DNA of 64,000 bases, taken from positions 152,896 through 216,895 of the forward strand of contig JAUSGI010000008.1 of the NCBI GenBank assembly GCA_030649135.1, in the 5' to 3' direction. Both the position numbers and the translations under genes were made by a program. Shown here one piece after another: positions 21,979 to 64,000 of the stretch (position 1 is its first letter; every line of letters starts with the position of its first letter). Under the pieces are notes generated by a model, which saw only the letters and a program-made list of their open reading frames with translations, was not told the origin of the DNA and did not search any database. This DNA comes from a bacterium (lineage in GTDB: Bacteria; Patescibacteriota; Minisyncoccia; Phycocordibacterales; Zambryskibacteraceae).

Positions 21979-23109
21979 ATGACAAATGTGTACGTGGCAC
22001 TCGGTTTCCTCGTTCTATGGACAATCATCTTCGCCTACGCCTCAATTGTCTTGGTGAAGACCGGGTCGATTGCGGTCGTGTTTCGATTCAGGGCGTTCAA
22101 ACGCGTCCTTGAACCCAGGACATTCCCCCACTTCATCATCCCAATCATTGACACCATCGAGAGGTATTCGACCCAGACTCATCAGGAGGAACTCCCGGCC
22201 GAAGCTGACAATATCGATCGGGTAAACGACATCCCCAGTCCCGGGAAAAAACTCCCTTTCCGTGTCCTCATGAAAGGAAAGGGGGAAGCCATCTTCTACG
22301 TGAAGAAGGCCGAGAGCGACGCTACCATCATCCGTACCGACCCACTCACAGCATGGAATCAGGTCCATTTCCAAGACCTTAATGAGCCAAGAAGAAAAGC
22401 TCTGGAGGAGGACTCGCTTCACGCCCCACTCACAGGAGAGATCGCGGTGGTCGTCGAGTGGTATTTGAAGGGCGACGACGAATATTCCATCAAAGACTTC
22501 GTCCAGAACGTCATCCCAGAGGGTGGGCGTAATCGAGAAGAAGAGATCAGGAAGCGTATCGAGGACATGGCATCCAGGACGCTTCAGGAACTCCTTGGAC
22601 CCGTTACTCTCGGTCATGCCCAAGAGATGATGTCTCTCTTCAGCCTACTCATAAAGGAAAGGACAGAGATTCTGGTCGGGGAAAAGGGTGAAGGGAGCAG
22701 ACCCTGGGGCATCCACATTCGTGATGCCTACATCAAGAGCATCCACCCGGGCCGGAGAGTGAACGAGGCCAGAGCGGATGCCGCAGCCGCAGTCAGCCAG
22801 AAGCAAGGAACAATCCGTATTGCCGAAGGTGTGGCAGTGGCAACCGAGCTGCAGGCCGAGGCTGACAAGACGAGGGAGATCAAGAAGGGCGAAGGAGAAG
22901 CCGCCCGGATCAACGCGATGGCTGCTGCGATGAAAGATCCTGACGCGCGCTTCATCGCCCAGCTCGACGTGCTGGAAACGGCCCTGCCGGCTGCCAACAC
23001 CGTGTACGTGGTGCCAAGTGACGGAGGACTCTTCGGCAACCTGCTCGCTCTCGGCAAAGAGGTCGTGAAAAATACGAAAAAGGAGGACAAACCAGAAGAC
23101 AAGAAATAG
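21979..23109 (+). CDS. SPFH/band-7 (stomatin/prohibitin-like) membrane protein
   Basis: N-terminal TM then band-7 core (SIAVVFRFRAFKRVLEPRTFPHFIIPIIDTI). C-terminal Ala/Glu-rich coiled coil. GC-rich relative to the window. Confidence 0.8.
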   Translation: MTNVYVALGFLVLWTIIFAYASIVLVKTGSIAVVFRFRAFKRVLEPRTFPHFIIPIIDTIERYSTQTHQEELPAEADNIDRVNDIPSPGKKLPFRVLMKGKGEAIFYVKKAESDATIIRTDPLTAWNQVHFQDLNEPRRKALEEDSLHAPLTGEIAVVVEWYLKGDDEYSIKDFVQNVIPEGGRNREEEIRKRIEDMASRTLQELLGPVTLGHAQEMMSLFSLLIKERTEILVGEKGEGSRPWGIHIRDAYIKSIHPGRRVNEARADAAAAVSQKQGTIRIAEGVAVATELQAEADKTREIKKGEGEAARINAMAAAMKDPDARFIAQLDVLETALPAANTVYVVPSDGGLFGNLLALGKEVVKNTKKEDKPEDKK

Positions 23110-23185
23110 ACAGGAAGTGTTCGTGTGCCGTCGCCAGCTTTCAGCTGGCGGCGGCACTTTTATTTATAAAATTCTATCACATCTA

Positions 23186-23214
23186 TTGACATAATTGAAT
23201 CAAAGGTGTATAAT
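23186..23214 (+). promoter_or_regulatory. Consensus sigma70 promoter TTGACA-N17-TATAAT
   Basis: Perfect -35 (23186-23191) and -10 (23209-23214) hexamers with 17-nt spacing. AAAGGA RBS and ATG at 23258. Confidence 0.55.
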
Positions 23215-23257
23215 TCTAGTAGATGCTCTCCACAAACTAACAGAAAGGACAGGCGAA

Positions 23258-23767
23258 ATGACGCTACTGGTAATTATCGCCATCGGAATTTTAGGGACGA
23301 TACTGGCTGGCTACACAGCATACCGCCTTCGCGACACGTCGGTCAGGCGCCAGCGGCAGACCAGACGACGTGTACGAACAGAAGATACTGCTGTAGCGGC
23401 TCCGCAACCGACACCGACACCACGTCGTCGCTCCTCACCAGGAGGAAACGGATGTCTGGTGTGGCTAGTCTTAATCGTCGTGATTGTCTTAGGAATCAGT
23501 GCCTACTCGTACTGGTCTTCCAAGGCAACAACGCCGGCGGTGCCTATCGCATCAGACGAGATAACCACCGTGGTGGCCCGGCCGGGACAACCGGCCGAGG
23601 TTGTCGTCCGAAGAGGGTGGCAACTCCAGGTTTGGGATAGGGACCACTCCAAGTTCTCTAGCCGTATGATACGGCGGGGGGAAGACCGGGTGTGGGTCTT
23701 CATCACCAAGAAGGGAGTGGAGTCCGCGGAAATCAAAGTCCGCGTGTACTATGCCCCGCGGAGGTAG
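23258..23767 (+). CDS. Hypothetical membrane protein (2 TM, Arg-rich linker)
   Basis: Start at the MTLLVIIAIGILG Met, which has an RBS. Two hydrophobic helices. Terminator downstream. Confidence 0.5.
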   Translation: MTLLVIIAIGILGTILAGYTAYRLRDTSVRRQRQTRRRVRTEDTAVAAPQPTPTPRRRSSPGGNGCLVWLVLIVVIVLGISAYSYWSSKATTPAVPIASDEITTVVARPGQPAEVVVRRGWQLQVWDRDHSKFSSRMIRRGEDRVWVFITKKGVESAEIKVRVYYAPRR

Positions 23768-23788
23768 GGGGGGGAGAACAGCGCAATA

Positions 23789-23830
23789 CCAAAGGCGCCA
23801 CGACCTCGGAGGTCGTGGCGCTCTTTTCTT
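23789..23830 (+). terminator. Rho-independent terminator
   Basis: Hairpin gcgccacgacctc/gaggtcgtggcgc followed by tcttttcttt. Confidence 0.6.
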
Positions 23831-23858
23831 TAGCCTGAGCTTGTCGAAGGGCCAATTT

Positions 23859-24122
23859 TCAGTTAACCGGATAACGGGCAGGAATACCAAACGTACCAAG
23901 AATTAAGTGGATCAAACCATAAGCAGAAATCATAATGAACATCCCAAAAAGCCCCCAGAAGATTTTCCTCTTCCCCTCGTCACGATTAGTATCGGTAGTC
24001 TGGGATGCAATGAATTGAAAGACACCCCAAAAGAACACCAGAAAAGCGATAGCAAACGCCAAGAGAATCAGAGGGTTCAGTATGAACTGATTAATCTTAC
24101 CGAGAAAAACAGAAATATCCAT
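23859..24122 (-). CDS. Pilin-like small membrane protein, paralog 1 of 6 (VirB2/TrbC-type two-helix topology)
   Basis: TM1 ends ...FFWGVFQFIA. Charged loop TDTNRDEGKRK. TM2 IFWGLFGMFIMISAYG. Paralogous to the next five genes. Confidence 0.55.
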   Translation of the reverse strand: MDISVFLGKINQFILNPLILLAFAIAFLVFFWGVFQFIASQTTDTNRDEGKRKIFWGLFGMFIMISAYGLIHLILGTFGIPARYPVN

Positions 24123-24129
24123 CCACTAA

Positions 24130-24474
24130 CTATAGGCCAATAATCCCCGGAGGTTGGATGTTTGAATTATCAGTAATACCCAAGTTAGTACCGATGAACC
24201 TGACAAGACCCCAGACGGAAACCATGACGAATAGGGCAATGAGGCCCCAGAGCATAATTTTCTTGGCTTCCGTCTTGGACGCCTCATCTCCTTGAGCAAA
24301 GATGAATTTGACCAAACCCCAGAAAAATGCCAGAAGGGCAAGACCCACGACAATTGGCAACGCGAGAGCTACCAAACCTTTAATACTATTAAAGAGTATC
24401 GTTATGTTGCCAAGCGTCTGGGCGAAGGCAAATGCCGGAACAAGCGCCAGAGTCACAAGAATGACTTTTTTCAT
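24130..24474 (-). CDS. Pilin-like small membrane protein, paralog 2 (signal peptide + two-helix core)
   Basis: Signal peptide. Core FFWGLVKFIFAQGDEASKTEAKKIMLWGLIALFVMVSVWG. Confidence 0.6.
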   Translation of the reverse strand: MKKVILVTLALVPAFAFAQTLGNITILFNSIKGLVALALPIVVGLALLAFFWGLVKFIFAQGDEASKTEAKKIMLWGLIALFVMVSVWGLVRFIGTNLGITDNSNIQPPGIIGL

Positions 24475-24570
24475 TTATTTAACTATCTAATATTACTTTT
24501 AATATACCTAAACGGTATGCCTATATGGTACAACAAGGCGCATAAAAGGCAATATGGTTATCCCCCGCAC

Positions 24571-24921
24571 CTATATCACAACAGGCGGGGGTGGAGGAGT
24601 TGTACTTTTAATCTCTAGCTGCACCTGCATGAATTTGATTATCCCCCAGACAGAGACCATGACAAAAAGGGCAATAAGACCCCATTTCATAATCCTCTTG
24701 CCCTCTTCTATTGCTTTCTCGTCTCCACTTACATGGAAGATAAACTTTACCAGACCCCAAAAGAATACCAAGAGGGATAGCCCGGCTAATACTATAATTG
24801 ATGTCTTCGTGAGAGCCCCGATTGCTTCTATGAGAGCCTTGAGACCAGTAAGAGGCGCGGCAAACACAAAACCCGGCAAGAGGAGGGCTACAAGCGCGAA
24901 TATATTTGAATATTTTTTCAT
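24571..24921 (-). CDS. Pilin-like small membrane protein, paralog 3
   Basis: Signal peptide. Core FFWGLVKFIFHVSGDEKAIEEGKRIMKWGLIALFVMVSVWG. C-terminal PPPPP. Confidence 0.6.
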   Translation of the reverse strand: MKKYSNIFALVALLLPGFVFAAPLTGLKALIEAIGALTKTSIIVLAGLSLLVFFWGLVKFIFHVSGDEKAIEEGKRIMKWGLIALFVMVSVWGIIKFMQVQLEIKSTTPPPPPVVI

Positions 24922-24934
24922 CTTAAATTAATAA

Positions 24935-25228
24935 CTACTTATACGGTGGTAAAAGTGGTAAACCGAACGGTCGACTGAAGCCTATGTCTCTATATGCGAA
25001 GGCGAGAATCGCCATAAGAGATGATAGCACAAAAAGCGCTATTAGTCCCCACTTCATTAAATTCTTGCCTTCCTCAACAGCCTTCTCGTCCCCGCCGACA
25101 CGGAAGATAAACTTGACCAGGCCCCAGAGGAACACCAATAAAGCAAGACTCGCGATTACAGGCAAGGCCGTGCGTATCAAGTCGATAAAGATATCCACCA
25201 GACCCTTGAAATCGCTTGGAGGGTTCAT
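24935..25228 (-). CDS. Pilin-like small membrane protein, paralog 4
   Basis: Core FLWGLVKFIFRVGGDEKAVEEGKNLMKWGLIALFVLSS. Confidence 0.6.
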   Translation of the reverse strand: MNPPSDFKGLVDIFIDLIRTALPVIASLALLVFLWGLVKFIFRVGGDEKAVEEGKNLMKWGLIALFVLSSLMAILAFAYRDIGFSRPFGLPLLPPYK

Positions 25229-25578
25229 CTTAGTTTATTAATAGTAGTCTCAATCACTTGCGCAAGCACCCAAGAACCGAGTAAGACCGCAGTACCCACA
25301 GACGTGTAGAGTAACGCCTTGTGGGCGGTCTTAAGATTCGTCTCATTGCCTTGTGCTGTGACATAAAGAAAGCCGGAATAGATGAAAGAGAGTACCGCAA
25401 GTACCCCGCCGATGGGTAGAATAATCTTGTCGATAATTATCCTAAGGAGGGTAAAGAGCGTGCAGTCCGAGCCACAGTTAATCGGGTTCTTTAGGGTTAA
25501 ACCATAAACCGAGACCGTGCCTAGGACAAAAAATATGGAGAATGATATTAGGGCGACGGATAATTTTTTCATGCTCAT
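25225..25578 (-). CDS. Pilin-like small membrane protein, paralog 5 (T4SS TrbC/VirB2-like)
   Basis: Signal peptide, a Cys pair (CGSDC), core GGVLAVLSFIYSGFLYVTAQGNETNLKTAHKALLYTSVGTAVLLGSW. Confidence 0.6.
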   Translation of the reverse strand: MSMKKLSVALISFSIFFVLGTVSVYGLTLKNPINCGSDCTLFTLLRIIIDKIILPIGGVLAVLSFIYSGFLYVTAQGNETNLKTAHKALLYTSVGTAVLLGSWVLAQVIETTINKLR

Positions 25579-25581
25579 GAT

Positions 25582-25890
25582 TTAAGGCGCACCCAAGAGA
25601 GAGTAGCCAGTATTAAGCAAGACACTCGTTATAGTATAAATCAGAAGCCAAGCTCCGAGTATCCACAGGTAGCCGACAAGTACTTTCCGGAAAATCTCTT
25701 TTGCCTTCGTCTTGGCCGACTCGTTACCGCCCGATGTCAGTAGGATAAAGCCAGCGTAGGCAAAAGCGGCGGTAGCAAGAAAAGTGGAGATGACTATCAG
25801 ATTATTTATAAGGTTTTGAGCAAGCAAAATCAGACTGGAGAAGGTACATAGTTTTTCCACACCATCACAGACTATAAGTGTCTTCCACAT
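25582..25890 (-). CDS. Pilin-like small membrane protein, paralog 6
   Basis: Core AAFAYAGFILLTSGGNESAKTKAKEIFRKVLVGYLWILGAWLL. Confidence 0.55.
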   Translation of the reverse strand: MWKTLIVCDGVEKLCTFSSLILLAQNLINNLIVISTFLATAAFAYAGFILLTSGGNESAKTKAKEIFRKVLVGYLWILGAWLLIYTITSVLLNTGYSLLGAP

Positions 25891-25892
25891 AA

Positions 25893-27176
25893 TTATGGTT
25901 TTATTAGCGCTTCAATCTCATTATGGGCATGGTAGACTGCCTCGAGAGTGCGGGCACGGCCACTGGTTACGGATTCTATTGCGTTATGAAAGATTGTTTT
26001 GGTCATCACGGTATCAGGGTCCAGCCAGCCCTTAGACTGAAGCGCCGCATCGTAAAAGACAGACAATGCCGTGTCAGCCGGTCTTACAGATAGGAGGTCG
26101 CGCCGTGCCGGTGGTAGAGAAAGAATCTCGGATAAAGCCCGCGCCACATCTTTTGACACCAATTTGGTGGCGAGGGCAAGTGCGGCGCCGGGATTTAGAG
26201 AACCGCGGGATATGGCCACCCCTCGCAGTCGCCCGAAGGTAACAGTCTTACCGGTGACTCTCGACTGGGGTACGGATGAGACGGCAAAGTTGAGAATGGG
26301 GTTTTTGTTCCTAAGCACGCGAAGTTCTGATGCAAAGCCCAGATAATAAGCGGAATCGCCACTTGTGAAGTGGGTCTGGGCATCAATGAGCGAACGATTC
26401 CAACTATAGTAGACCCTCGTCGGGTTTGAGAATTGGGTGTAAAAACTTAGGGCCGCCTCACCCGGCGAAATTGTCAAACCAAAAGTTTCGGCGATTTGTG
26501 AGCGCAATTCTATTCCGGCCAAACTGGTAATAGGCGTGCCGGCCTGAAGTAGCAGTAGAGCGAGAATGTCTTTGGCATGAGGAATATTTCGCGCCTCCCC
26601 CAGAGCCATGACCGAAGAAATGAGATTACCCGCGGCATCCTTTTTAGATAGATTGGTAGCGGCCGGATATATTTCATCCCAATACACAATAGGTCTGGCT
26701 TGCCCCGCTGCCGTAAGCAAATCTCTATTATAGTAAAGCACCAAGGGGTCTAGAGAGAGAGGAAGAGCGTAGATACCACCCGGGTCAAGGAAGAGTTCCC
26801 CTTCTTCAATGAATACGCTCTTGAAATCTCGCTCATTCACATTGCTGTAAGAAATGAGCGCGAGCTTGGGCTTATTTTTCCAAAGTTTGTCTTGAGTGAG
26901 AATAATCAGGTCAGGGCCAGTTCCCCGCGCCAACGCTTCGGTAAATTCCGCCTCTATTGTGTCAGCTGACTTTTCTTCATAACTTACGGAGAATGCCCGG
27001 TCTTCACCAAGAAGGGATGGGGTAAGTAAAAGATTAAAGTCCTGTGAGGTAATATCTCCCCAGACGGTTAAGGCAACATTCTGGCCACCAGAACCGCGAT
27101 ACAAAGAGAAGGCCGCCACGCCGGCGACAATAGCAACCGCGAAAATCGCTAAGAGAATAATCTGAAACTTTGACAT
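25893..27176 (-). CDS. Membrane-anchored extracellular solute-binding-protein-like protein (MalE/family-1 SBP fold)
   Basis: N-terminal TM anchor. VALTVWGD...GTGPDLIILTQD...LVLYYNRDLL pattern typical of sugar-type SBPs. First gene of the pilin-array operon. Confidence 0.55.
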   Translation of the reverse strand: MSKFQIILLAIFAVAIVAGVAAFSLYRGSGGQNVALTVWGDITSQDFNLLLTPSLLGEDRAFSVSYEEKSADTIEAEFTEALARGTGPDLIILTQDKLWKNKPKLALISYSNVNERDFKSVFIEEGELFLDPGGIYALPLSLDPLVLYYNRDLLTAAGQARPIVYWDEIYPAATNLSKKDAAGNLISSVMALGEARNIPHAKDILALLLLQAGTPITSLAGIELRSQIAETFGLTISPGEAALSFYTQFSNPTRVYYSWNRSLIDAQTHFTSGDSAYYLGFASELRVLRNKNPILNFAVSSVPQSRVTGKTVTFGRLRGVAISRGSLNPGAALALATKLVSKDVARALSEILSLPPARRDLLSVRPADTALSVFYDAALQSKGWLDPDTVMTKTIFHNAIESVTSGRARTLEAVYHAHNEIEALIKP

Positions 27177-27250: not shown

Positions 27251-27898
27251 ATGGGTAATAGAGACTATAAAAAATTTGCCACTGGAACTATCTTTCATAT
27301 ATACAATAGAGGCAATAACCGAGAAAAAATTTTCCATGATGAGCAGGACTATAAAGCGCTAATATTTAGAATTGGTCTGGCACTAGGATTCGAAGAAAAA
27401 GAACTGTCACATCAATTATGTCACCAACCATATTCAAGAATCAGGATTACAGGCACACATAAAGGAAAATTCAAGCTACACGCTTTTTGTCTTATGCCAA
27501 ATCATTTTCACTTACTTATCGAACAGTGTGAAGATGTGCCTATATCGAAAATTATCTCGAAAATATGTGCAAGTTATGCTAAATATGTAAATAAAAAATA
27601 CAAAAGAGTCGGGCATGTATTTCAGGATAAATTTAAAGCAGTACTTATGGAATCAAATGAACAACTTATGTGGATTTGCACATATATACACATGAATGCA
27701 GTGAAGGACAGTATGGTCAAACATCCAGATGAATATGTATGGAGTAGCTACAATGACTATACAACTGACAGAAATCTGCCAATCATAAATACTGACTTTT
27801 TGATCTCACTATTTGGTGATAAAAATAGTTTCAAAAAAGAGACCCTCCGCCCTTACTCAGATAGCCTGTCAAAGACCGTCTTTGACATTAAGAGTTGA
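27251..27898 (+). CDS. REP-associated tyrosine transposase (RAYT) / IS200-like Y1 HUH transposase, paralog 1
   Basis: YxxxRGN N-terminal motif (FHIYNRGNNREKIF), HUH motif CLMPNHFHLLIE and catalytic Tyr region CTYIHMNAV. AT-rich gene flanked by REP palindromes. Confidence 0.75.
   Translation: MGNRDYKKFATGTIFHIYNRGNNREKIFHDEQDYKALIFRIGLALGFEEKELSHQLCHQPYSRIRITGTHKGKFKLHAFCLMPNHFHLLIEQCEDVPISKIISKICASYAKYVNKKYKRVGHVFQDKFKAVLMESNEQLMWICTYIHMNAVKDSMVKHPDEYVWSSYNDYTTDRNLPIINTDFLISLFGDKNSFKKETLRPYSDSLSKTVFDIKS
27867..27887. repeat. REP-like palindrome tgtcaaagaccgtctttgaca (copy 1b)
   Basis: Identical to copy 1a. Overlaps the last codons of RAYT-1 (KTVFD). Confidence 0.8.
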
Positions 27899-27918: not shown

Positions 27919-28695
27919 TTATTTCAAAACCACCATCAGGTGATCTGAGAAATCGATATAGCCACCCTTTTGATATTCTTTGATTTTCTTAAGGAACTCT
28001 TCAGCCTCTGTATCATTCGGAAAAGAATCAGTATTATGAATAAATCTATAGAAAATCTTGAGGTCAAAACGGCTATTAGTCGTAAGGATATCTCCAACAA
28101 ACATTCTCATCCTTAATCTCTTAACCTCGACCTTAAACCCGAGTTTCTTATAGAAATCAGCGATGTATTCTGCATAATTAAATTCTGGGTAAACCTGTTG
28201 CAACATTATCTTATAGTGATCGCTATCTTCAGGAAGAGTGAGAATAAGCAATTTGCCATCATTATTTAATAAGTCAGGAAGTTTAGAGAGTTGTGCATTA
28301 TAATCTTTTTCATTGAGACCCCAGTAATAGTTTGTGTGGGATGTAAAGACAATATCGTATTTTTTATCAGTTTTAAAAGTAGCAAGACTCCCTGGAAAAC
28401 ATTCCCCAATGTTATTTTCCAGAGTTAAAAATGCTTTGGCTGATGATAAGGCATTTTGATTAGGTTCAAGTAAGTCACAAATGTAGTCTCCTTCAACACG
28501 GTCAAGAATCTGCTTTGTAGTGTGGCCTTCGCCGCAACCAATATCAAGAACGAGTTTATTGGGGGAATTTTGAGTATTTATCTCTTTTACAATTTCAGCT
28601 ACAATCCCAAACCAATCCTCAGCAAAACTACGAATGTAGATATTTTCGTATACATCTGAAAATTCTTTTTCTCCCCAGAAATGCCACTTTGCCAT
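27919..28695 (-). CDS. Class I SAM-dependent methyltransferase
   Basis: Motif I LVLDIGCGEGHTT. AT-rich. Lies between REP copies 1b and 1c. Confidence 0.7.
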   Translation of the reverse strand: MAKWHFWGEKEFSDVYENIYIRSFAEDWFGIVAEIVKEINTQNSPNKLVLDIGCGEGHTTKQILDRVEGDYICDLLEPNQNALSSAKAFLTLENNIGECFPGSLATFKTDKKYDIVFTSHTNYYWGLNEKDYNAQLSKLPDLLNNDGKLLILTLPEDSDHYKIMLQQVYPEFNYAEYIADFYKKLGFKVEVKRLRMRMFVGDILTTNSRFDLKIFYRFIHNTDSFPNDTEAEEFLKKIKEYQKGGYIDFSDHLMVVLK

Positions 28696-28783: not shown

Positions 28784-31222
28784 TCAAAAACAAATTAAGG
28801 AAGCTATGCTATCCCCCTCTCTTAATTTCATAATCCTTACTCCCTGAGTCTGGCGACCCAACTCCGGAATCTCTTTGAGCCCAACCCGGACTACCTGACT
28901 CTTTTTGGAAATAGCTATGACTTCGTCTTCTTGGTCGGTCACCACTTGCGAGGCGATAACCTGACCAGTTTTCGGTGTCACTTTAGAAGTGAGAATACCG
29001 GAACCACCCCTGCCTTGTACTTTGTATTCGGATAGTTCCGTGCGCTTACCGTAGCCATTGGCAGAAATGACCAAGAGATGACCCGCTTTCTCTTCTGATT
29101 TGATATGGTGCGCGCCCACGACCAGGTCCCCTTTGCCGAGCTTAATCCCCCTCACTCCTCCCGCGCCACGGCCCATCTCACGAATGGCCGATTCCTTAAA
29201 CCGGATGGACTGGCCTTTTTTCGTCACAATGGACATGTCATCGTTCTTCTCGACCAATTCAACCGATATCAATCTGTCTCCCGGAGAAAGTTTGATGGCA
29301 ATGATGCCGGAAGCGCGCACGTCATGAAAACTTTTAGCCGAGACTTTCTTGGCGGTACCGTTTTCCGTAATCATAAATAGCGAACCACCGATATCCTTCT
29401 TGCCCTTGCCCATCGCCAGAATGGAAGTCACCTTCTCGTCATCAGAAAGTGAAATGAAATTCATCACCGACTTGCCGCGCGTAGCGCGCTTACCCTCCGG
29501 AATGTCATACATCTTGATTTGATAAGCCTTACCCTTGTCGGTAAAGAACAAGAGGTCGGCATGGGTGCTGGCAGTCAAAAAATTGGTGACAAAGTCCTCT
29601 TCTTTGGTATCCAGGTCTACCACTCCTACCCCGCCACGTTTCTGGCGTCTGTATTCATCCGGATTGGTGCGCTTGATGTATCCACCTGATGTTAGAACTA
29701 GCGTATTCTCTTCCTCTGGCACCAAATCTTCGACAGAAAGAATTTTGACTCCCCCTTTGATTACTTTGGTGCGACGCTCGTCACCATACTTATCTTTAAT
29801 ATCTTGTAGTTCAGTCTTGACTACTTTTAAAATTTTAGCGTTCGAGGCCAATAATTCTTTCAGCTCTTTGATAAAAGCTTGGACTTCTTTAAGTTCATCC
29901 TCCACTTTCTGGCGTTCCAGACCGGCCAGTTTCTGGAGCTTCATTTCGAGAATGGCATTGGCCTGCAATTCGGAAAGTTTAAATTCTTTTATCAAACCGG
30001 CTCGGGCGTCGTCAACGCTTGATGAGGCTCGAATGAGTTTGATAACTCGGTCAATGTTGTCGAGAGCAATCGTAAGACCGAGCAGAATGTGTTCGCGTTC
30101 CTCGGCTTTGGCCAAATCAAATGCTGTACGACGCTTGACCACTACCTCTCGATGTTTGAGAAACTCAATGAGCATGCTCTTGAGTGATAGAGTCTGAGGT
30201 ACGCCATCGACCAATGCCACGAGATTGAAGTGGAAAGTTTCCTCGAGTTGGGTATGTTTGTAGAGAGCATTTAAGATTTTCTGCGGTTGACTGCCATTTT
30301 TAAGATCAATAACCACCCGAACGTCTTTAGTCGACTCATCACGCAAACCCTTCACCCCTTCAATCTTCTTCTCTCGCACTAAGTCCGCAATTTTAGGTAT
30401 TAACCCCTCCGCTTTATTTACTCGGTATGGAATCGCGGTGATGATAATCTGATTACCGCCGCCCTTACCTTCCACAATCTCAGCCACACCACGGACCACC
30501 ACTGGCCCTCGACCGGTAGCATAAGCATGGTGAATATCTTTTTCATTAAAAATAATACCGCCAGTGGGAAAGTCTGGGCCCTTTATAAACCCGAGTAAAT
30601 CTTCCGTAGTCGCATCACGATTATCAGCTAGGTGGACCGTAGCATCAATAACTTCCGAAAGATTATGAGGTGGAATATTGGTAGCCATGCCCACGGCGAT
30701 ACCCAAAGTACCGTTGAGTAAAAGGTTAGGCGTTGCCGCCGGTAAAACTACCGGCTCTGACCTTGTACCATCGTAATTGGGTCTGAAGTCTACCGTATCT
30801 TTATCAATATCTTTAAGCATTTCACCTGCCAGACGTGACATCTTCGCCTCGGTGTAACGATAAGCAGCGGCACTATCTCCGTCTATTGAACCGAAATTTC
30901 CTTGTCCGATAACCAAGGGATAACGCATCGAGAAATCCTGTGTCATTTTGACCATGGCTTCGTAGACAGAGGAGTCGCCATGCGGGTGATATTTGCCGAG
31001 CACGTCTCCAACGATGGTGGCGGACTTCTTGGTCTTAGCGCCCGCGTTAAGACCAATCTCATTCATGGCATAGAGAATACGGCGGTGCACCGGCTTGAGG
31101 CCATCACGCACATCAGGCAATGCGCGGTCGGTGATGACCGACATGGCATAGTCGATAAACGACTCCTTCATCTCGCTCGTAATCGGGCGAGAGATAACTC
31201 TGTCTCCGTCCTTATTCGCCAT
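28784..31222 (-). CDS. gyrA: DNA gyrase subunit A
   Basis: [29 protein letters not shown]. Full GyrA with C-terminal beta-pinwheel repeats. Confidence 0.9.
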
Positions 31223-31565
31223 ATACATCTAAAGCGCCATCTCTCATCTCTTTGTATTCAGCTTCCAAGTCTACCGCTTTTAAACCGGACTTGAGCGCTC
31301 CGAAATTCTCCCGAAAGGCTTCGAGACTGGTGCTCAAGTTCATGCGCAATGATTCAAACGGACTTACTTCCGTCTCCGGTTGAGCAGACGCTTCTTGAGA
31401 ACTGCCACTTTCGGCGACAATCTTTGTGTTGGTACTATTAATACCGAAAGTGGCGAGAGACCAAACTCCGAAAATAAAAAGGGTGATAGAGCTTGAAGCC
31501 AGAAAGGCAAATTGCTTCTTATGGCGTTCGGGTTTGGTGTGAAGTGTTGAAAGATATCTACGCAT
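31212..31565 (-). CDS. Hypothetical small membrane protein
   Basis: Single TM helix. No recognisable domain. Confidence 0.3.
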
Positions 31566-31577
31566 ATTCGTTATTTA

Positions 31578-32252
31578 TTATTCTTCTTTAATTACCACAA
31601 TCTCGCCTTCTTTGCCTTCCAAGTCTTTCTTCTTAACCACCAATTTATCGAGTGATTCCATTCTAGCTTGGCCACCTTCTTTTATAAACTGTTCCAAAGT
31701 CTCTTTAGTATAGTACATCGGTATGATAATAGACGGCTCGAGAGAAACGGCAAGTTTATAAGCGGATGCCGCACCCAACATACCTTGTCCGCCGATAGGC
31801 ACAAACAGTATATCGATATCTTCTATCGCTTCGAGAGTCTCATCCGAGAGAGTTGGATTGGCGAGCGCGCCGAGGAAACATAGATTCATCCCTTCGAAGA
31901 AGACGAGATAAATTGTATTTATTTTCTTGGCGGGCTTGCCCGCCGACCCGGTGGCGGGTCCTTCCGAAAGAAAACCCTTTACGAAAACGTCTTTGATTTC
32001 ATACTCGCCCGGACCGTCTATGACGAAAGACTCTTTATCGCCCCCGCCTGCAATGCCTGCGGATGCATGGCGGGCAGGTCGAGAAGTCTGGTCACGCCCG
32101 TTAAAGTCGGGCAGATTCGTAGTAATGAGAGTGACATCAGCGCCAAATCTCGCTGGTTTTAATTTAGAATCTTTCGATATCGGATTGAACGCCAGGGTAA
32201 TATCTCCTTGGGAGATTTTGAAGCATTCCGCGCCGTGATAAGTGATTACCAT
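31578..32252 (-). CDS. MBL-fold metal-dependent hydrolase (COG2220-like)
   Basis: Beta-lactamase-fold periodicity (MVITYHGAECFKI...). No classic HxHxDH motif, so the fold assignment is weak. Confidence 0.55.
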   Translation of the reverse strand: MVITYHGAECFKISQGDITLAFNPISKDSKLKPARFGADVTLITTNLPDFNGRDQTSRPARHASAGIAGGGDKESFVIDGPGEYEIKDVFVKGFLSEGPATGSAGKPAKKINTIYLVFFEGMNLCFLGALANPTLSDETLEAIEDIDILFVPIGGQGMLGAASAYKLAVSLEPSIIIPMYYTKETLEQFIKEGGQARMESLDKLVVKKKDLEGKEGEIVVIKEE

Positions 32253-32321
32253 TGCTCCATTTTAGCATAAAACAGTGCTATTTGCCAGCGTTTTCCGCCT
32301 TGAATTCCCTTCCCTTTCTTC

Positions 32322-32350
32322 TTGACAAAGAGTGTTATATATGATAGGAT
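32322..32350 (+). promoter_or_regulatory. Putative promoter TTGACA-N17-TAGGAT (TGtTATATA nearby) upstream of the LysM gene
   Basis: -35 at 32322-32327. Candidate -10 at 32345-32350. Confidence 0.35.
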
Positions 32351-32427
32351 TCTAGAGGACCTTGGGAGCACCTGCCATACCGGCATGGTGCGCTCGTTAA
32401 CCCAGTTCATTCACAAGGAGACAAGAG

Positions 32428-33564
32428 ATGACACGACGCATTGCTTTGTTCACGCTGGTCGCAATCCTCTGGATTGCTCAGACCAGCCTCGCGCAGGCAC
32501 CCTATCAGGTGAAGGAGGGAGACACCCTCTACGCCCTGAAGGGGATCTACTCGGCTAACCAACCCGAGTGGAAAGCGCTCACGATCGTGAACCCGCAGCT
32601 CGCGGAACCCGGCCGAGCCTTCACCGATACGCAGAAACGATTTATCGTCATCCTGCGCCTGGGTGAACGGCTCAAGGGCCTCGAAATGCTCGGCATAACC
32701 GCCCAGCCGATACTCGTTACCGGGTTCGTAGCGCCAGCGCCGACCACGAAAAACGTCGTCACAGACATCACTGCCAGTGCCGATAGCCACAACAGGTGGC
32801 TCATCGCGCTCATGGCAACAGTGTTGGCGCTCATCATTCCCTACCTGATCTTCCGGTATCTGCCGGAATCGCGTAGGCCGAACCTTCCGTTCCTCGGGAG
32901 GTATAACCCGGCACTCACCACGAACCCTGTCACGGCGGCTCCCCCGATGGTCGCCGGAGGCATCGCCTCTGACAATCATGACGCTATCAGGCGCCAGTTC
33001 CGGGAACAGGCGGCGCGGACGTACGCGTCGACGCACGGCGGTGTTATACCCCAGATGAGTGACATCCGCATCGTCGGCAACATCATCCATGGTACGCTAC
33101 ACGACGTCTGGGAAACCTCAGACGCCAATGGCCGCTGGATTCCCCGCCGCTACAACGGCGAGCCAGGGTTCCAGGCGATGGTCTCGGTCAACAACGCCGA
33201 ACCAGCGCTCCAGACATGGTCACAACCATGTGGCAACGATCTGCGTATCGGGCGACGCTACCGTGGCGGGCGCTTCATATCCCGCCCTGCGGCCGGGACG
33301 ATTCCGGCTCAGGCTCCAGCCACTCCAGTGGCTCCGCTTCGTCCGCACATCGCGGTGGCGCAGGAGCCGGACGGGCAGGTGGTCACCATCACGGTCGGCG
33401 GTATGCGTTACACCACTCATGGCAATGACATCCACGTCAACGTGGATCAGGGGGGCGCTGTGACGGATGTCACAGCGAACGGCCAGATCCGCGTGGCGAA
33501 GGTGCCGAAGCGGACGAAACCACGTGTGGTACGACCGGCGGCGACAGGTACACGCGACAAGTAG
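32428..33564 (+). CDS. Secreted/membrane LysM-domain protein (GC-rich island)
   Basis: Signal peptide, LysM motif YQVKEGDTLYALKGIY, internal TM. About 60% GC versus ~47% background. Confidence 0.6.
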   Translation: MTRRIALFTLVAILWIAQTSLAQAPYQVKEGDTLYALKGIYSANQPEWKALTIVNPQLAEPGRAFTDTQKRFIVILRLGERLKGLEMLGITAQPILVTGFVAPAPTTKNVVTDITASADSHNRWLIALMATVLALIIPYLIFRYLPESRRPNLPFLGRYNPALTTNPVTAAPPMVAGGIASDNHDAIRRQFREQAARTYASTHGGVIPQMSDIRIVGNIIHGTLHDVWETSDANGRWIPRRYNGEPGFQAMVSVNNAEPALQTWSQPCGNDLRIGRRYRGGRFISRPAAGTIPAQAPATPVAPLRPHIAVAQEPDGQVVTITVGGMRYTTHGNDIHVNVDQGGAVTDVTANGQIRVAKVPKRTKPRVVRPAATGTRDK

Positions 33565-33619
33565 TACAAACGCGGCCAGACGTTAATCTGGCAAAGTCCG
33601 GGGAGACTTAACTCCCCAC

Positions 33620-33651
33620 GGGCAGGTCATCGTGACCTGCCCTTTTTCGTT
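33620..33651 (+). terminator. Rho-independent terminator
   Basis: Hairpin gggcaggtca-tcg-tgacctgccc followed by ttttt. Confidence 0.55.
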
Positions 33652-33657
33652 ACAAGT

Positions 33658-33975
33658 TTATACGCGAGGGCGGGCTAAAAAGGCGAACCACATGAAATAG
33701 CGTTCAACATCCGGCAGGAAGCTGTGATATTCCTTTCCCCCCAGAACCGCATCGGCGAAGACTTCTCTCGCTCGGTCAATTTCTGACCTGCGTTTTTTCC
33801 ACCTCTTGTCCATTTGCGTCAGCTCGAAAAGTTCCATGGCTCGTCCCACCGCTCCCCAGAAAGATTTCTCGTCTTTACCTTGCCACTTGGCGGCACGTCC
33901 GACTTCACTACCAATATTACCGAGTTGTTCGGCCAGAGTCAGAGTAAACCACCTTTCTTTCGAGACCGTTGCCAT
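33658..33975 (-). CDS. Hypothetical all-alpha protein
   Basis: 105 aa, helical, no confident family. Confidence 0.35.
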   Translation of the reverse strand: MATVSKERWFTLTLAEQLGNIGSEVGRAAKWQGKDEKSFWGAVGRAMELFELTQMDKRWKKRRSEIDRAREVFADAVLGGKEYHSFLPDVERYFMWFAFLARPRV

Positions 33976-33976
33976 G

Positions 33977-34327
33977 TTACTTAACTATCTTAGTTACGAT
34001 TTCTACAATTTTATTTTGGATTCCAATATCCCCAACACCTCGAGTCTTATTGCCAAGGACTGGCTTAAGATTAATCATTGAATCGAATTCAATAAAATCT
34101 TCCCCAGATTTTTCTAGATATAAGTTGATGCCCCAAGTATCCTCCCCGCGCGAATTTTCTTTTTCAATAAGTTGCGACTGTATATCGACATGGAGTTCCC
34201 CACCAACTCCCAAGATACCTTGCCCGACATCTACTACCGCCTTTATGATATCGCCATAAAGTTCGCGAGCGAGTTCCCTTAGCTCTTCTCTGGAAATTGA
34301 ATCCTTGACTATTCTTGTTTCAACCAT
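33977..34327 (-). CDS. Hypothetical protein
   Basis: 116 aa. Tightly linked to the previous gene (2-nt gap). Confidence 0.35.
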   Translation of the reverse strand: MVETRIVKDSISREELRELARELYGDIIKAVVDVGQGILGVGGELHVDIQSQLIEKENSRGEDTWGINLYLEKSGEDFIEFDSMINLKPVLGNKTRGVGDIGIQNKIVEIVTKIVK

Positions 34328-35575: not shown

Positions 35576-36235
35576 CTATAGGATCTTCAAATAATCTAGC
35601 TCTTCTTCTAGAAGTTTTGCTGGACTTGTCCTAGTAAACTCTTGGTATTTGTCTGGGCCTTTGAATTGACCTAGAACGATTTCTGATAAAAGCAGACTTC
35701 CCCATCGATTTTCTTTTATAAAATCTTGATAGCTTGACCAAGGATATTGGTCTTCTTTCTTAAACCACTTCCCAATCTCTCTCGGGTTTCTATGAATATA
35801 GCTAGACAGATATAAAAGCTGATGATCACCTTCTATATGAACCGCACGATAAGGCCCTTGAAAAACATGTCCAGATTTATCATATCTGGTATTGTAATAT
35901 TTGGCATAAGCATTAAGCACTCTCTGCATATAAGCTGCTATGCCTTCTTCTTCAACTTCTTTGACCAATAAGTGGAAATGGTTTGGCATGATACGGAAAG
36001 AAACAAGCTCAACTGTACGCTTTTTAACAATCTCCTCTGTATTATCTAACACCCGGTGTTTGACGAAATCCTTTACTGACCTACCAACCTGTGGAAAAGT
36101 TACTTCTGATTGGAAGTAAAGAATGAGGAAAAGAAATCTGTTGTAGTCTCCTGTATCATGAAAAATAACTTGTTTGTGTACACCCCTATTACACAAATGA
36201 TAATACTCGTTTGGAGACAACCGTGTTCTTCTCAT
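35576..36235 (-). CDS. REP-associated tyrosine transposase (RAYT)/IS200-like, paralog 2
   Basis: YYHLCNRGVHKQVIF, HUH FRIMPNHFHLLVKE, Tyr motif SYIHRNP. AT-rich. Confidence 0.75.
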   Translation of the reverse strand: MRRTRLSPNEYYHLCNRGVHKQVIFHDTGDYNRFLFLILYFQSEVTFPQVGRSVKDFVKHRVLDNTEEIVKKRTVELVSFRIMPNHFHLLVKEVEEEGIAAYMQRVLNAYAKYYNTRYDKSGHVFQGPYRAVHIEGDHQLLYLSSYIHRNPREIGKWFKKEDQYPWSSYQDFIKENRWGSLLLSEIVLGQFKGPDKYQEFTRTSPAKLLEEELDYLKIL

Positions 36236-44944: not shown

Positions 44945-44985
44945 AAAACTCACCCCGATTAATCGGGGTGAGTTTTGTTCGTTTT
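44945..44985 (+). terminator. Rho-independent (bidirectional) terminator
   Basis: 14-bp stem aaaactcaccccga/tcggggtgagtttt with loop ttaa, then gttcgtttt. Confidence 0.6.
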
Positions 44986-45235
44986 GAATAGAAAAACCCT
45001 CGCATCCGGAAGCCGGAGGAGGATATGGGTGGGTGCGCCTAGATCTCGGCGCAAAGAACTTGTGTTTTCAATCATCATTGCTGATGACCGAGAAACGCAT
45101 CGCAGGAGAAGTGAAGTCTGTCTTGGGAAAGCGGCGCCGCCATCCCTAAACATAACCTCACTTCTCCCACATCTGCCCATAGATTACTCCCATGACGGTA
45201 TAGTGTCAATCCCATACCTGTGGATAACTACGACC

Positions 45236-58381: not shown

Positions 58382-59044
58382 ATGGGAGCAAGGCAAGGAA
58401 GTTTCGCTGCGGGAGAATACTACCACTTATACAATCGCGGTAATAGTAAACAGAAAATTTTTCACAGCAAACACGATTATGAGCGTTTTTTAAAGTTGCT
58501 ATATATTGCAAACTCTTCAGAAAAATTCCACTTCTCCGACATTCAAAATCCATACGAGATAGAAAGGTCTGCCCGACTGGTATCAATAGGAGCGTATTGC
58601 TTGATGCCAAATCATTTTCATCTACTGATGACGCCTGTGAACGACAAAGAAGCTGGGGTAAGTAAATTTATGAAAAAATTAGGCACTGCTTATGCTATGT
58701 ATTTCAATACAAGGTACGAGAGAGTGGGAAGCCTTTTCGAGGGAAAATTTAGATCAGAACATCTTGACTCAGACCGTTATCTCAAATATATATTTTCTTA
58801 TGTACATCTTAATCCTATAAAGATTATGGATAACAAATGGAGGGAACTTGGTATTAAGGACAAAAACAAAGCCTGGCGATTCCTCAATGGATACAAATAC
58901 TCAAGTTTTTATGATTACCAGGATAAACACAGGGAGGAAGAGAAAATTTTGAACAAAGAAAATTTTCCTGGCTACTTTCCCTCTGCACATAAGTTTAAGG
59001 AAGAAATATTTGATTGGCTAAACTTCAGCAACCGAAAGCAATAA
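58382..59044 (+). CDS. REP-associated tyrosine transposase (RAYT)/IS200-like, paralog 3
   Basis: YYHLYNRGNSKQKIF, HUH CLMPNHFHLLMT, Tyr motif SYVHLNPIK. AT-rich. Confidence 0.75.
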   Translation: MGARQGSFAAGEYYHLYNRGNSKQKIFHSKHDYERFLKLLYIANSSEKFHFSDIQNPYEIERSARLVSIGAYCLMPNHFHLLMTPVNDKEAGVSKFMKKLGTAYAMYFNTRYERVGSLFEGKFRSEHLDSDRYLKYIFSYVHLNPIKIMDNKWRELGIKDKNKAWRFLNGYKYSSFYDYQDKHREEEKILNKENFPGYFPSAHKFKEEIFDWLNFSNRKQ

Positions 59045-63622: not shown

Positions 63623-64000
63623 AAGATTTTTAATGGTGGCCAGACCAAGAGCATCGATGGAGAAGAGTGTGGTAGTGGAGAAGGCTGCGGTGGAAGAAGA
63701 GATGATGAAGAGATTGGAGTTGTATGTGTCGGTGGCACCGGCATGGAGATTAAAGCGAGCGTAAGGAGAAGAAGTACCGATACCGAAACTATTAGCTGCA
63801 GACAGGTTGGTAGTGGAAGCAGTGATGGCGTTGAAGAGGGTGGCAAAGAAATTGGTCGAAGTAGCGTTGGTCGAGGTGGAGTAAGTGGCGAAAGTGGAAG
63901 AGGCAATTAAGCCTAGAGGTGAGCCTTTGAGCCAGAGACCGGTTGATGTCGCAACTACGTTTTGAGTACCGTAAGTAGTGGGAGTCCAGGCGAAGGTGTT
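63311..64000. repeat. Tandem direct duplication (~138 bp near-identical copies, 552-bp period) in the 5' region of the giant gene, running off the window
   Basis: 63311-63448 and 63863-64000 differ at only a few positions. The 552-bp offset is a multiple of 3 (184 aa). Confidence 0.7.

Follow-up and report, generated by a model that had tools for sequence, protein, structure and literature searches.

A solute-binding protein gene joined to an ordered array of VirB2-like pilin-family genes in Paceibacteria

A 64,000-nucleotide stretch of contig JAUSGI010000008.1 (assembly GCA_030649135.1, Zambryskibacteraceae), referred to below as the window, was found on checking of its open reading frames (ORFs) to contain seven co-directional minus-strand genes at 23859-27176. 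The first of these encodes a MalE-like solute-binding protein (SBP) and the remaining six, designated p1 to p6, encode small two-helix proteins that match the type IV secretion system (T4SS) pilin family PF18895 (T4SS_pilin). Searches started from either the SBP or a pilin showed that SBP and array form an obligate unit across approximately 160 related loci, as a rule beside gyrA and in no case beside a VirB4-like gene, and the operon is deeply conserved in these ultra-small Paceibacteria, which resemble Candidatus Zambryskibacteria. The locus is interpreted as the Paceibacteria version of the patescibacterial VirB2-like array, the products of which would be T4SS-dependent subunits of a filament or channel with the SBP as ligand- or host-binding partner, an interpretation for which the case stands about evenly balanced.

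Family assignment and topology of the small proteins

PF18895 was the top Pfam match of all six small proteins (E 5e-5 to 2e-10). Scores were above the gathering score of 26.6 bits for p2 (28.2 bits, E 2.1e-6), p3 (29.6 bits, E 7.3e-7), p4 (35.1 bits, E 1.4e-8) and p5 (41.0 bits, E 2e-10) and just under it for p1 (23.7 bits, E 5.2e-5) and p6 (25.3 bits, E 1.7e-5). The same family was matched at E<=0.01, always as the top match, by 150 of 150 array proteins from 25 related loci, in agreement with a first-pass annotation of the window in which the six proteins were assigned to the T4SS pilins. Matches at E<=0.01 to TrbC/VirB2 (PF04956) were noted for 33 of these 150 proteins (best E 2.9e-8) while p2, alone among the window proteins, gave a weak match to this family (E 0.11, 13.2 bits as opposed to a cut-off of 27.9). 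Five of the six window proteins also gave sub-threshold matches to NCBIfam NF045849, the Mbov_0395 pilin-like conjugal transfer protein (E 5.8e-6 to 0.024), the lowest E value being that of p6, again below the model cut-off. A search with p5 returned 976 homologs at E<=0.001, the best 120 of which all contained PF18895 and included some named "pilin" by NCBI. Better matches to holin or immunity families, which the first-pass annotation had named as evidence that would count against its assignment, did not appear; no holin, immunity or phage family of Pfam matched the small proteins, PHROGs gave no match either, and holin, phage and defence readings were rejected on these results.

Hydropathy indicated two hydrophobic helices and a short charged loop in each of p1 to p6 and a signal-peptide-like N-terminal segment in p2, p4 and p5 only, this segment being absent from p1, p3 and p6. 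The AlphaFold2 (AF2) model of mature p5 (predicted local distance difference test score, pLDDT, 77.5) was a helical hairpin with helices at 3-41 and 46-79, a loop and a proline-rich tail. Both results support the topology proposed at first pass (i.e., an optional signal peptide followed by two helices with a charged loop between them).

Identity among the six window paralogs ranged from 21 to 57% (mean 33%), and two classes could be distinguished by their motifs. Class A (p1 and p2) is marked by AYAGF..SGGN and AQGN..AH..LLY and class B (p3 to p6) by FFWGL.KFI..GDE...GK..M.WG.IALFVM.S.WG. Alignment identified p1 and p2 as the two proteins previously said to carry a variant motif, whereas the core previously ascribed to the other four was present literally in p3 and p4 and in a looser form in p5 and p6.

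Structure of the gene cluster

All six consecutive minus-strand small genes of the first-pass annotation (87-117 aa) were recovered as ORFs at the positions listed in Table 1. Successive junctions from the SBP gene through p6 measured 2, 3, -4 (an ATGA overlap of p2 and p3), 13, 96 and 7 nt; the range of 3-96 nt given earlier was thus nearly right. These tight or overlapping junctions are compatible with translational coupling. A terminator scan placed a bidirectional hairpin between p6 and its convergent neighbour at 23195-23767, and the unit is predicted to be one operon with a strong terminator at its end. The gene arrangement is far from chance, as the SBP plus array recurred in essentially every related locus for which enough sequence was available.

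Table 1. Predicted features of the SBP-pilin locus and the genes upstream of it (window positions).
Feature	Position	Strand	Description
SBP-like gene	25893-27176	-	427 aa; MalE-like family-1 SBP domain
pilin p1	25582-25890	-	102 aa, class A; without signal peptide; conserved Cys-x6-Cys N-terminally; motif AYAGF..TSGGN
pilin p2	25225-25578	-	117 aa, class A; signal-peptide-like N-terminus; motif GF.YVTAQGN..K.AH..LLY
pilin p3	24935-25228	-	97 aa, class B; without signal peptide; core FLWGLVKFIF..GGDEKAVEEGK.LMKWGLIALFV
pilin p4	24571-24921	-	116 aa, class B; signal-peptide-like N-terminus; Pro-rich C-terminal tail
spacer with predicted internal promoter for p5-p6	24475-24570	-	96 nt, conserved
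pilin p5	24130-24474	-	114 aa, class B; predicted signal peptide (..AFAFA/QT, slash marking the cleavage site); own predicted promoter
pilin p6	23859-24122	-	87 aa, class B-divergent; without signal peptide
predicted bidirectional intrinsic terminator	23794-23822	both	13-bp GC-rich stem (terminator scan)
IS200-like Y1 transposase	27251-27898	+	Pfam Y1_Tnp 6.3e-12
methyltransferase	27919-28695	-	Pfam methyltransferase domains
gyrA	28784-31228	-	parted from the operon by the transposase and methyltransferase genes in this genome

Association of the SBP with the array in related genomes

A scan of a genome collection with the SBP alignment yielded 80 species-level loci with SBP identities of 38-79%, the source records of which bore labels that included Zambryskibacteria, Campbellbacteria, Yonathbacteria and Paceibacterota. 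With an iterated pilin hidden Markov model (HMM), 5-7 pilin ORFs were detected directly 3' of the SBP gene in nearly every locus with room for them and none elsewhere within approximately 8 kb of the SBP in the 80 loci. The distance from the SBP stop to the p1 start had a median of 1 nt down to 38% SBP identity and a 4-nt overlap was common, ORF starts in related loci being those of the longest ORF so that some lengths and overlaps are overestimated. In the reverse search of metagenome contigs from p5, the SBP was directly upstream wherever a locus extended that far. Arrays of 4 to 8 genes were seen, depending on the lineage. In the complete Campbellbacteria genome CP011215.1 (locus L081, 8001-10085), only a class-A pair, i.e., a p1-like gene with the Cys pair and a p2-like gene, followed the SBP before a convergent Band_7 gene, which makes SBP-p1-p2 look like the tightest core of the unit.

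The only common large neighbour was gyrA, which was present in 101 loci. Synteny of gyrA, SBP and pilins, with gyrA directly upstream of the SBP, was noted in the annotated relatives L001-L004.

Downstream of the array, a Band_7/SPFH gene and a membrane protein without a Pfam match lie convergent to it at 21979-23767 (+), an arrangement conserved in L001-L004; the membrane protein ranged from 190 to 337 aa across these loci and the window. Genes for DoxX, a LOG-type protein (Lysine_decarbox), FKBP, holB and RRF follow these two in the same order as in relatives, and gene order in the clade was strongly conserved overall. Among entries of Table S3 of PMC12102498 for a sister Campbellbacteria genome are three consecutive small genes elsewhere that the CONJScan PrgF profile labels FATA_PrgF, far from VirB4; going by those entries, the class-B genes of Campbellbacteria may have moved and been scored as PrgF-like. 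A Paceibacteria-type gyrA-SBP-pilin locus was also found in JBEBJM010000007.1 (L078), binned as "Nitrospira sp.", and in dozens of CAY* and CAZ* metagenome-assembled genomes titled "uncultured Candidatus Saccharibacteria bacterium", labels that probably stem from contaminated bins and from generic, mistaken titles of the source records.

Positional orthology and selective constraint

Best matches were tallied by array position across 53 six-gene loci (53 species-level genomes). The best match lay at the same position in 2715/2755 comparisons for p1, 2756/2756 for p2 and 2729/2756 for p6 (approximately 99%) and in 2626/2756 (95%) for p5. Same-position matches were 55-69% for p3 and p4, the rest being nearly all on other class-B positions; the orthology of p3 was mostly to position 3 with cross-matches to p4 and p5. 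By these comparisons the six positions are ancient orthologs in a fixed order, two of class A and then four of class B.

Mean ortholog identities in close relatives were 76, 69, 68, 58, 67 and 77% for p1 to p6 as opposed to 70% for the SBP, and pilin ortholog identity tracked SBP identity. Pairwise ratios of nonsynonymous to synonymous substitution (dN/dS) against four close relatives were 0.05-0.26 over the positions, values that are approximate because dS was about 1-2.4. Ratios of approximately 0.08-0.13 were obtained for p1, 0.13-0.26 for p4 and 0.05-0.08 for p6, which identified p4 as the least constrained position and p6 as the most conserved in close relatives. Ratios in this range place every array position under purifying selection. 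A fixed and ordered set of proteins, each held by such selection, is as expected of distinct subunits in a single assembly, and the multi-pilin structure offered as one alternative in the first-pass annotation fits these data.

The solute-binding protein

Pfam matches of the SBP above cut-off were to SBP_bac_8 (E 2.6e-14, 54.1 bits) and SBP_bac_1 (E 3.1e-9, 37.7 bits), the family pair PF13416/PF01547. The top matches in a profile search of the PDB were trehalose/maltose-binding proteins (E 1.6e-6), and Foldseek matched the AF2 model of the SBP to Thermotoga maritima MalE and Escherichia coli MBP (E approximately 1e-17, TM 0.6-0.7). The pLDDT of this model was only 64 because the alignment was shallow (identity 68% or more), a value sufficient for fold assignment and too uncertain for analysis of a binding site or pocket. 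Together with the hydrophobic N-terminal helix noted below, these matches support the earlier description of the first gene as encoding a transmembrane-anchored MalE-like SBP.

The SBPs of monoderm bacteria are as a rule lipoproteins and have a lipobox cysteine. The present SBP sequence (427 aa) contains no cysteine and is therefore no lipoprotein. Both hydropathy and the AF2 model placed a hydrophobic helix at approximately residues 3-28, and among 83 orthologs this helix was as well conserved as the globular domain (mean top-residue frequency 0.60 for both) whereas the linker that follows was less so (0.42). Residues F4, F12 and F23 of the helix were conserved at >=90% in the same orthologs. 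Judged from the alignment, such conservation would be unusual for a mere anchor or a cleaved signal.

The SBP family comprised 941 clusters at 50% identity (E<=1e-30), and the best 150 of these 941 were all full length with the same N-terminus; a distant representative, P0380, came from a 1.4-kb contig without genomic context. No cognate transporter genes of the ATP-binding cassette (ABC) type, i.e., BPD_transp or ABC_tran, adjoined the SBP gene, either in the window or in L001-L004, for which annotation was available.

The spacer before p5

A gap of 80-120 nt precedes p5 in nearly all related loci. In the window, the corresponding spacer contains an inverted DnaA-box-like element, GGGGATAA (24558-24565), separated by 5 nt from a -35-like TTGCCT (24547-24552), and then, after a gap of 16 nt, a -10-like TACCAT (24525-24530), a palindrome ATACC-N5-GGTAT (24504-24518) and an A/T-rich leader. 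The layout box-N5/6-TTG..-N16/17-TA...T recurred across loci and took the form TTATCCACA-N5/6-TTGnnT-N17-TAnTATAAT in a more distant subclade, whereas the window's own subclade has a degenerate element in inverted orientation, G[G/T]GGATAA, again 5 nt from the -35. The exact DnaA-box consensus TTATCCACA was present in 25 of the 53 spacers and with <=1 mismatch in 36 (approximately 2.5 expected), while the 8-mer, forward or inverted, occurred in 42 (approximately 0.9 expected). Exact boxes numbered 40 in 1.16 Mb of loci, and 30 of them were inside arrays. The promoter hexamers of the window are weak and were not flagged by a generic promoter scan. As predicted from these conserved features, the 96-nt spacer is an internal promoter for p5-p6 with a DnaA-box-like element.

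The idea that TTATCCACA is a general promoter element was rejected, since its frequency outside arrays in related loci was close to chance. No oriC-like cluster of DnaA boxes was found in the window.

The consensus occurred twice in the window, once before a candidate small RNA. This stretch of approximately 230 nt (44945-45176, minus strand) has no convincing ORF, ends in a 14-bp hairpin and U-run terminator, and is preceded at 45181-45227 by a promoter of the form TTATCCACA-N9-TTGACA-17 nt-TAATCT. Its predicted fold (-114.1 kcal/mol) was far more stable than those of shuffled sequences (-65.6 +/- 4.7; z = -10.3) and no family was matched in a search of Rfam, which makes it a candidate for a novel structured small RNA. 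A layout with a DnaA-box-like element upstream of the -35 is common to this candidate and to the p5 promoter of related loci.

Other features of the window

Pfam scans, which covered all large ORFs of the window and many of the smaller ones, yielded mainly housekeeping genes, including those for DnaE, an SMC/RecN-type protein, PBP2, MreB/C, GyrA, FtsA/Z, MurJ, LepA and several aminoacyl-tRNA synthetases, as well as three IS200-like Y1 transposases and a large LVIVD-repeat protein. The three transposase genes are paralogous (approximately 215-220 aa each) and lie scattered among housekeeping genes; besides that listed in Table 1, they are at 35576-36235 (-) and 58382-59044 (+). Relatives have no insertion between gyrA and the SBP gene, and in L003 a similar Y1 gene occurs elsewhere in the neighbourhood. 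Rather than active insertion sequence elements, the three window genes may be RAYT-like genes that have been domesticated. The LVIVD-repeat protein (59075-63622, minus strand; 1515 aa) contains six such repeats and a beta-propeller and is probably a large surface protein; an ORF at 63616-63906 lies directly upstream of its gene. Compared with a window average of approximately 0.46, G+C content was elevated at 22001-24000 (0.54), where the Band_7 gene and the gene for the 190-aa membrane protein, convergent to the array, are situated, and at 32001-34000 (0.57), which covers a 378-aa secreted protein (32428-33564) without a Pfam match.

Interpretation of the locus

The proposed explanation may be outlined as follows. 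Whether they have a signal peptide or lack one, the small proteins would enter the membrane in the N-out orientation. A T4SS whose genes lie elsewhere in the genome (VirB4 and its partners) would extract or assemble them to give a heteromeric filament or channel at the cell surface. The abundant subunit would be p5, perhaps with p6, expressed from the internal promoter, while the products of other positions would serve as low-copy initiator, tip or base subunits; the choice of p5 as major subunit follows from its own promoter. The SBP would join the assembly through its conserved N-terminal helix and supply recognition of a ligand or host glycan, whether in attachment or in the capture of a compound derived from the host, and the DnaA-box-like element would tie p5-p6 expression to replication status. 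The comparisons establish which family the small proteins belong to, the layout of the operon, the linkage to the SBP, the orthology of the positions, their constraint and the conservation of the promoter. Filament formation, T4SS dependence, physical association of the SBP and control by DnaA are all steps that we infer, and the part given to the SBP in the assembly is conjectural.

That a T4SS is available in these organisms is suggested by Table S1 of PMC12102498, in which VirB4 is present in most Zambryskibacteria assemblies and also in six operon-bearing genomes, those of L012, L025, L026, L057, L062 and the complete L081. In the case of L025, the operon is on a scaffold of 463,918 bp from an assembly of 482,730 bp, from which it follows that VirB4 is either more than 8 kb from the array on the same scaffold or on the remaining 19 kb. 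In Patescibacteria at large, PF18895 pilins were near virB4 in 1135 of 1948 assemblies, and virB4 of Paceibacteria tends to be close to dnaA and dnaN (PMC12102498).

Several observations weigh against this interpretation. As the first-pass annotation had said of VirB4, VirB6 and VirD4, none of these, nor PrgI, VirB3, VirB8 or a T4SS-type hydrolase, was detected by the Pfam scans in the 64-kb window, and no VirB4-like cluster was found among large ORFs within 8-10 kb in the approximately 160 related loci; the link to a T4SS rests, therefore, on family membership and on other lineages. No organism is known to make a filament of PF18895 proteins. When the p5 model was compared with the PDB, nothing significant or diagnostic was returned, only generic membrane hairpins (e.g., ATP synthase c and complex I subunit K) and, in 50th place with E 6.3, an archaeal conjugative pilin (8dfu); this outcome is uninformative rather than negative. 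The SBP has the appearance of a normal ABC binding protein of the sugar type and, since the array of Candidatus Southlakia epibionticum has none, is no general component of such arrays. Finally, with regard to the DnaA link, the window element GGGGATAA has two mismatches to the 9-mer consensus.

Two rivals are serious. According to the first, which is judged unlikely, the six two-helix proteins (12 transmembrane helices) and the SBP constitute a self-contained membrane device that works without a T4SS, i.e., an unconventional uptake or signalling complex. The strict linkage of SBP and array, with T4SS genes consistently absent nearby, would suit such a device, as would a fixed set in which each paralog is conserved in the manner of a stoichiometric complex, conservation of the SBP transmembrane helix, the lack of ABC permease and ATPase genes in the annotated neighbourhoods (L001-L004) and the retrieval of generic hairpins only by the p5 model. 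However, PF18895 genes stand beside virB4 in many Patescibacteria and are essential together with the T4SS in S. epibionticum, TrbC/VirB2 is matched by 33 of 150 members, and operon-bearing genomes are VirB4-positive where listed. Furthermore, arrays that vary from 4 to 8 genes, and that in Campbellbacteria consist of p1-p2 alone, are ill-suited to a rigid 12-helix transporter, and no energising component is encoded.

The second serious rival, to which a rather low probability is likewise given, treats the SBP as an ordinary ABC binding protein with its permease elsewhere in the genome; the SBP would merely share a conserved neighbourhood with pilins that serve the T4SS. The canonical family-1 motifs and MalE-like fold of the protein agree with this explanation, as does the SBP-less array of S. 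epibionticum, and because the gene order of the whole neighbourhood (gyrA through Band_7, DoxX and RRF) is conserved in the clade, synteny alone is weak evidence of partnership. A bystander would not be expected, however, to keep a median distance of 1 nt and often a 4-nt overlap with p1 down to 38% identity, to be linked with the array in both search directions and to remain so despite insertion of the transposase and methyltransferase genes in the window and loss of class-B genes in L081. The absence of adjacent permease and ATPase genes from every inspected locus and the unusual conservation of the membrane helix also speak against it. If the SBP were nevertheless a bystander, the locus would be just one more case of a published array class.

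The remaining alternatives fared less well. In the first-pass annotation, the tandem paralogs were suggested to be a source of antigenic or receptor variation. They would then be a diversifying repertoire of the kind proposed for the VirB2 paralogs of Bartonella and Anaplasma. This suggestion, also raised in the literature for patescibacterial arrays (PMC12102498), draws on the low identity of the window paralogs (21-57%). That divergence is ancient rather than ongoing, since each position has its own ortholog, in unchanged order, in 53 species-level genomes, and the SBP-like conservation of these orthologs, their dN/dS of 0.05-0.26 and the containment of all six genes in a single operon, where nothing points to switching elements, led to rejection of a variation role, which is now considered very improbable. 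The notion that the proteins are holins, bacteriocin-immunity proteins or unrelated small membrane proteins matched to Pfam through hydrophobicity is very unlikely, for although they are short and hydrophobic with a generic hairpin fold and two of the six fall just under the Pfam cut-off, PF18895 was top for 150 of 150 with no holin or immunity family and no PHROGs match, Pfam scans of window ORFs revealed no phage or toxin genes nearby, and the charged-loop motifs are conserved beyond what hydrophobicity alone would explain.

To return to the T4SS-dependent assembly, a more specific version, itself quite unlikely, would have the T4SS build a heteromeric VirB2-like filament to which the MalE-like receptor is docked by its helix, with p1-p4 and p6 as low-copy subunits to prime the structure and p5 as its main subunit. 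Such a pilus-tethered binding protein would recognise a glycan of the host surface or permit import of a host compound through the T4SS channel. Gating of p5 expression by DnaA via TTATCCACA would couple the device to replication or to the cycle of host attachment. If true, this would be a bacterial counterpart of the archaeal bindosome and the first functional clue to the essential patescibacterial T4SS.

Comparison with known systems

The archaeal bindosome (Sulfolobus Bas) is an assembly of sugar-binding proteins with small pilin-like proteins. The concept of surface substrate-binding proteins combined with several small pilin-like proteins is thus shared with the present locus, as an analogy only; the bindosome pilins are of the unrelated type IV pilin-like kind and have class III signal peptides, the system needs an ATPase and a membrane platform of the type IV pilus kind, and there is no sequence relationship. 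PrgZ/TraC of pCF10 is an extracellular SBP encoded on the same element as a monoderm T4SS, to which it is functionally tied; it captures an external ligand and passes it to the host Opp permease for regulation. PrgZ/TraC is, however, a family-5 peptide-binding lipoprotein encoded away from pilin-like genes, whereas the window SBP is of the sugar-type family 1 and apparently anchored by a helix.

With the TrbC/VirB2 pilins (Agrobacterium VirB2, RP4 TrbC and F TraA), the window proteins share small size, an optional signal peptide, two helices, a charged loop and the N-out orientation predicted for them. The profile link is weak but real, being significant for 33 of 150 orthologs and below PF04956 significance for the window proteins themselves. 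In contrast with those systems, which have one subunit and a diderm host, the window locus encodes six different subunits in a monoderm, is known from genes alone and is without a VirB5 tip protein, a cyclase or maturation genes of the TraX/TraQ type. PrgF (pCF10) and Mbov_0395-type MPF-FATA proteins are likewise small two-helix membrane proteins with a charged loop that belong to monoderm T4SS clusters. Comparison of the p5 profile with PrgF by hhalign was not significant (E 0.11, probability 0.5%), the topology being alike, and PrgF differs from the window array in that it is a single gene inside a T4SS operon with no SBP partner.

The closest resemblance is to arrays already described in Patescibacteria. 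From 3,035 Patescibacteria genomes searched for PF18895 and PF04956, Quinonero-Coronel et al. (2025; PMC12102498) described 441 VirB2 arrays, each of 2-11 genes, distributed over 383 assemblies and defined by pilin genes in tandem or with one non-pilin gene between them and by low paralog identity (mean 25%, maximum 54%); an analogy with antigenic variation was raised by the same authors. Wang et al. (2023; PMC10633639) found the T4SS cluster and adjacent pilins to be essential in Ca. Southlakia epibionticum ML1, where, according to their tables, SEML1_0014-0019 are six consecutive PF18895 genes, all essential, in a cluster without an SBP. What the T4SS and its essential pilin array do in Patescibacteria has been called completely unknown (PMC11665869), and another report goes no further than a potential for conjugative pili (PMC12857230). 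The window array, with six contiguous genes of 21-57% identity, falls within the published definition, its paralog identity (mean 33%) is typical, and it resembles the ML1 array in its six divergent, tandem, two-helix PF18895 pilins encoded on the chromosome of a monoderm with a reduced genome. The two differ in that the ML1 array is divergently adjacent to T4SS genes and has no SBP, whereas the window array has the SBP in its operon, lies in the vicinity of gyrA and has no virB4 cluster nearby.

Since tandem VirB2-like arrays and an essential six-pilin array are both known (PMC12102498, PMC10633639, PMC12857230), the array as such is of a published kind. Searches of the available literature returned no report of an SBP-pilin link, of positional orthology, of a class-A/class-B composition or of a DnaA-box-like promoter, and the SBP partnership, the two-class ordered composition and the DnaA-box-like internal promoter seem to be new. 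What might have been taken for variable pilins would become a defined machine of several subunits whose candidate ligand sensor can be expressed and screened for ligands, in a large Paceibacteria clade that has joined a pilin set to a ligand-binding protein with every subunit under purifying selection. The DnaA-box-like promoter, in turn, suggests a testable regulatory connection with replication, reminiscent of reports that T4SS genes cluster near dnaA.

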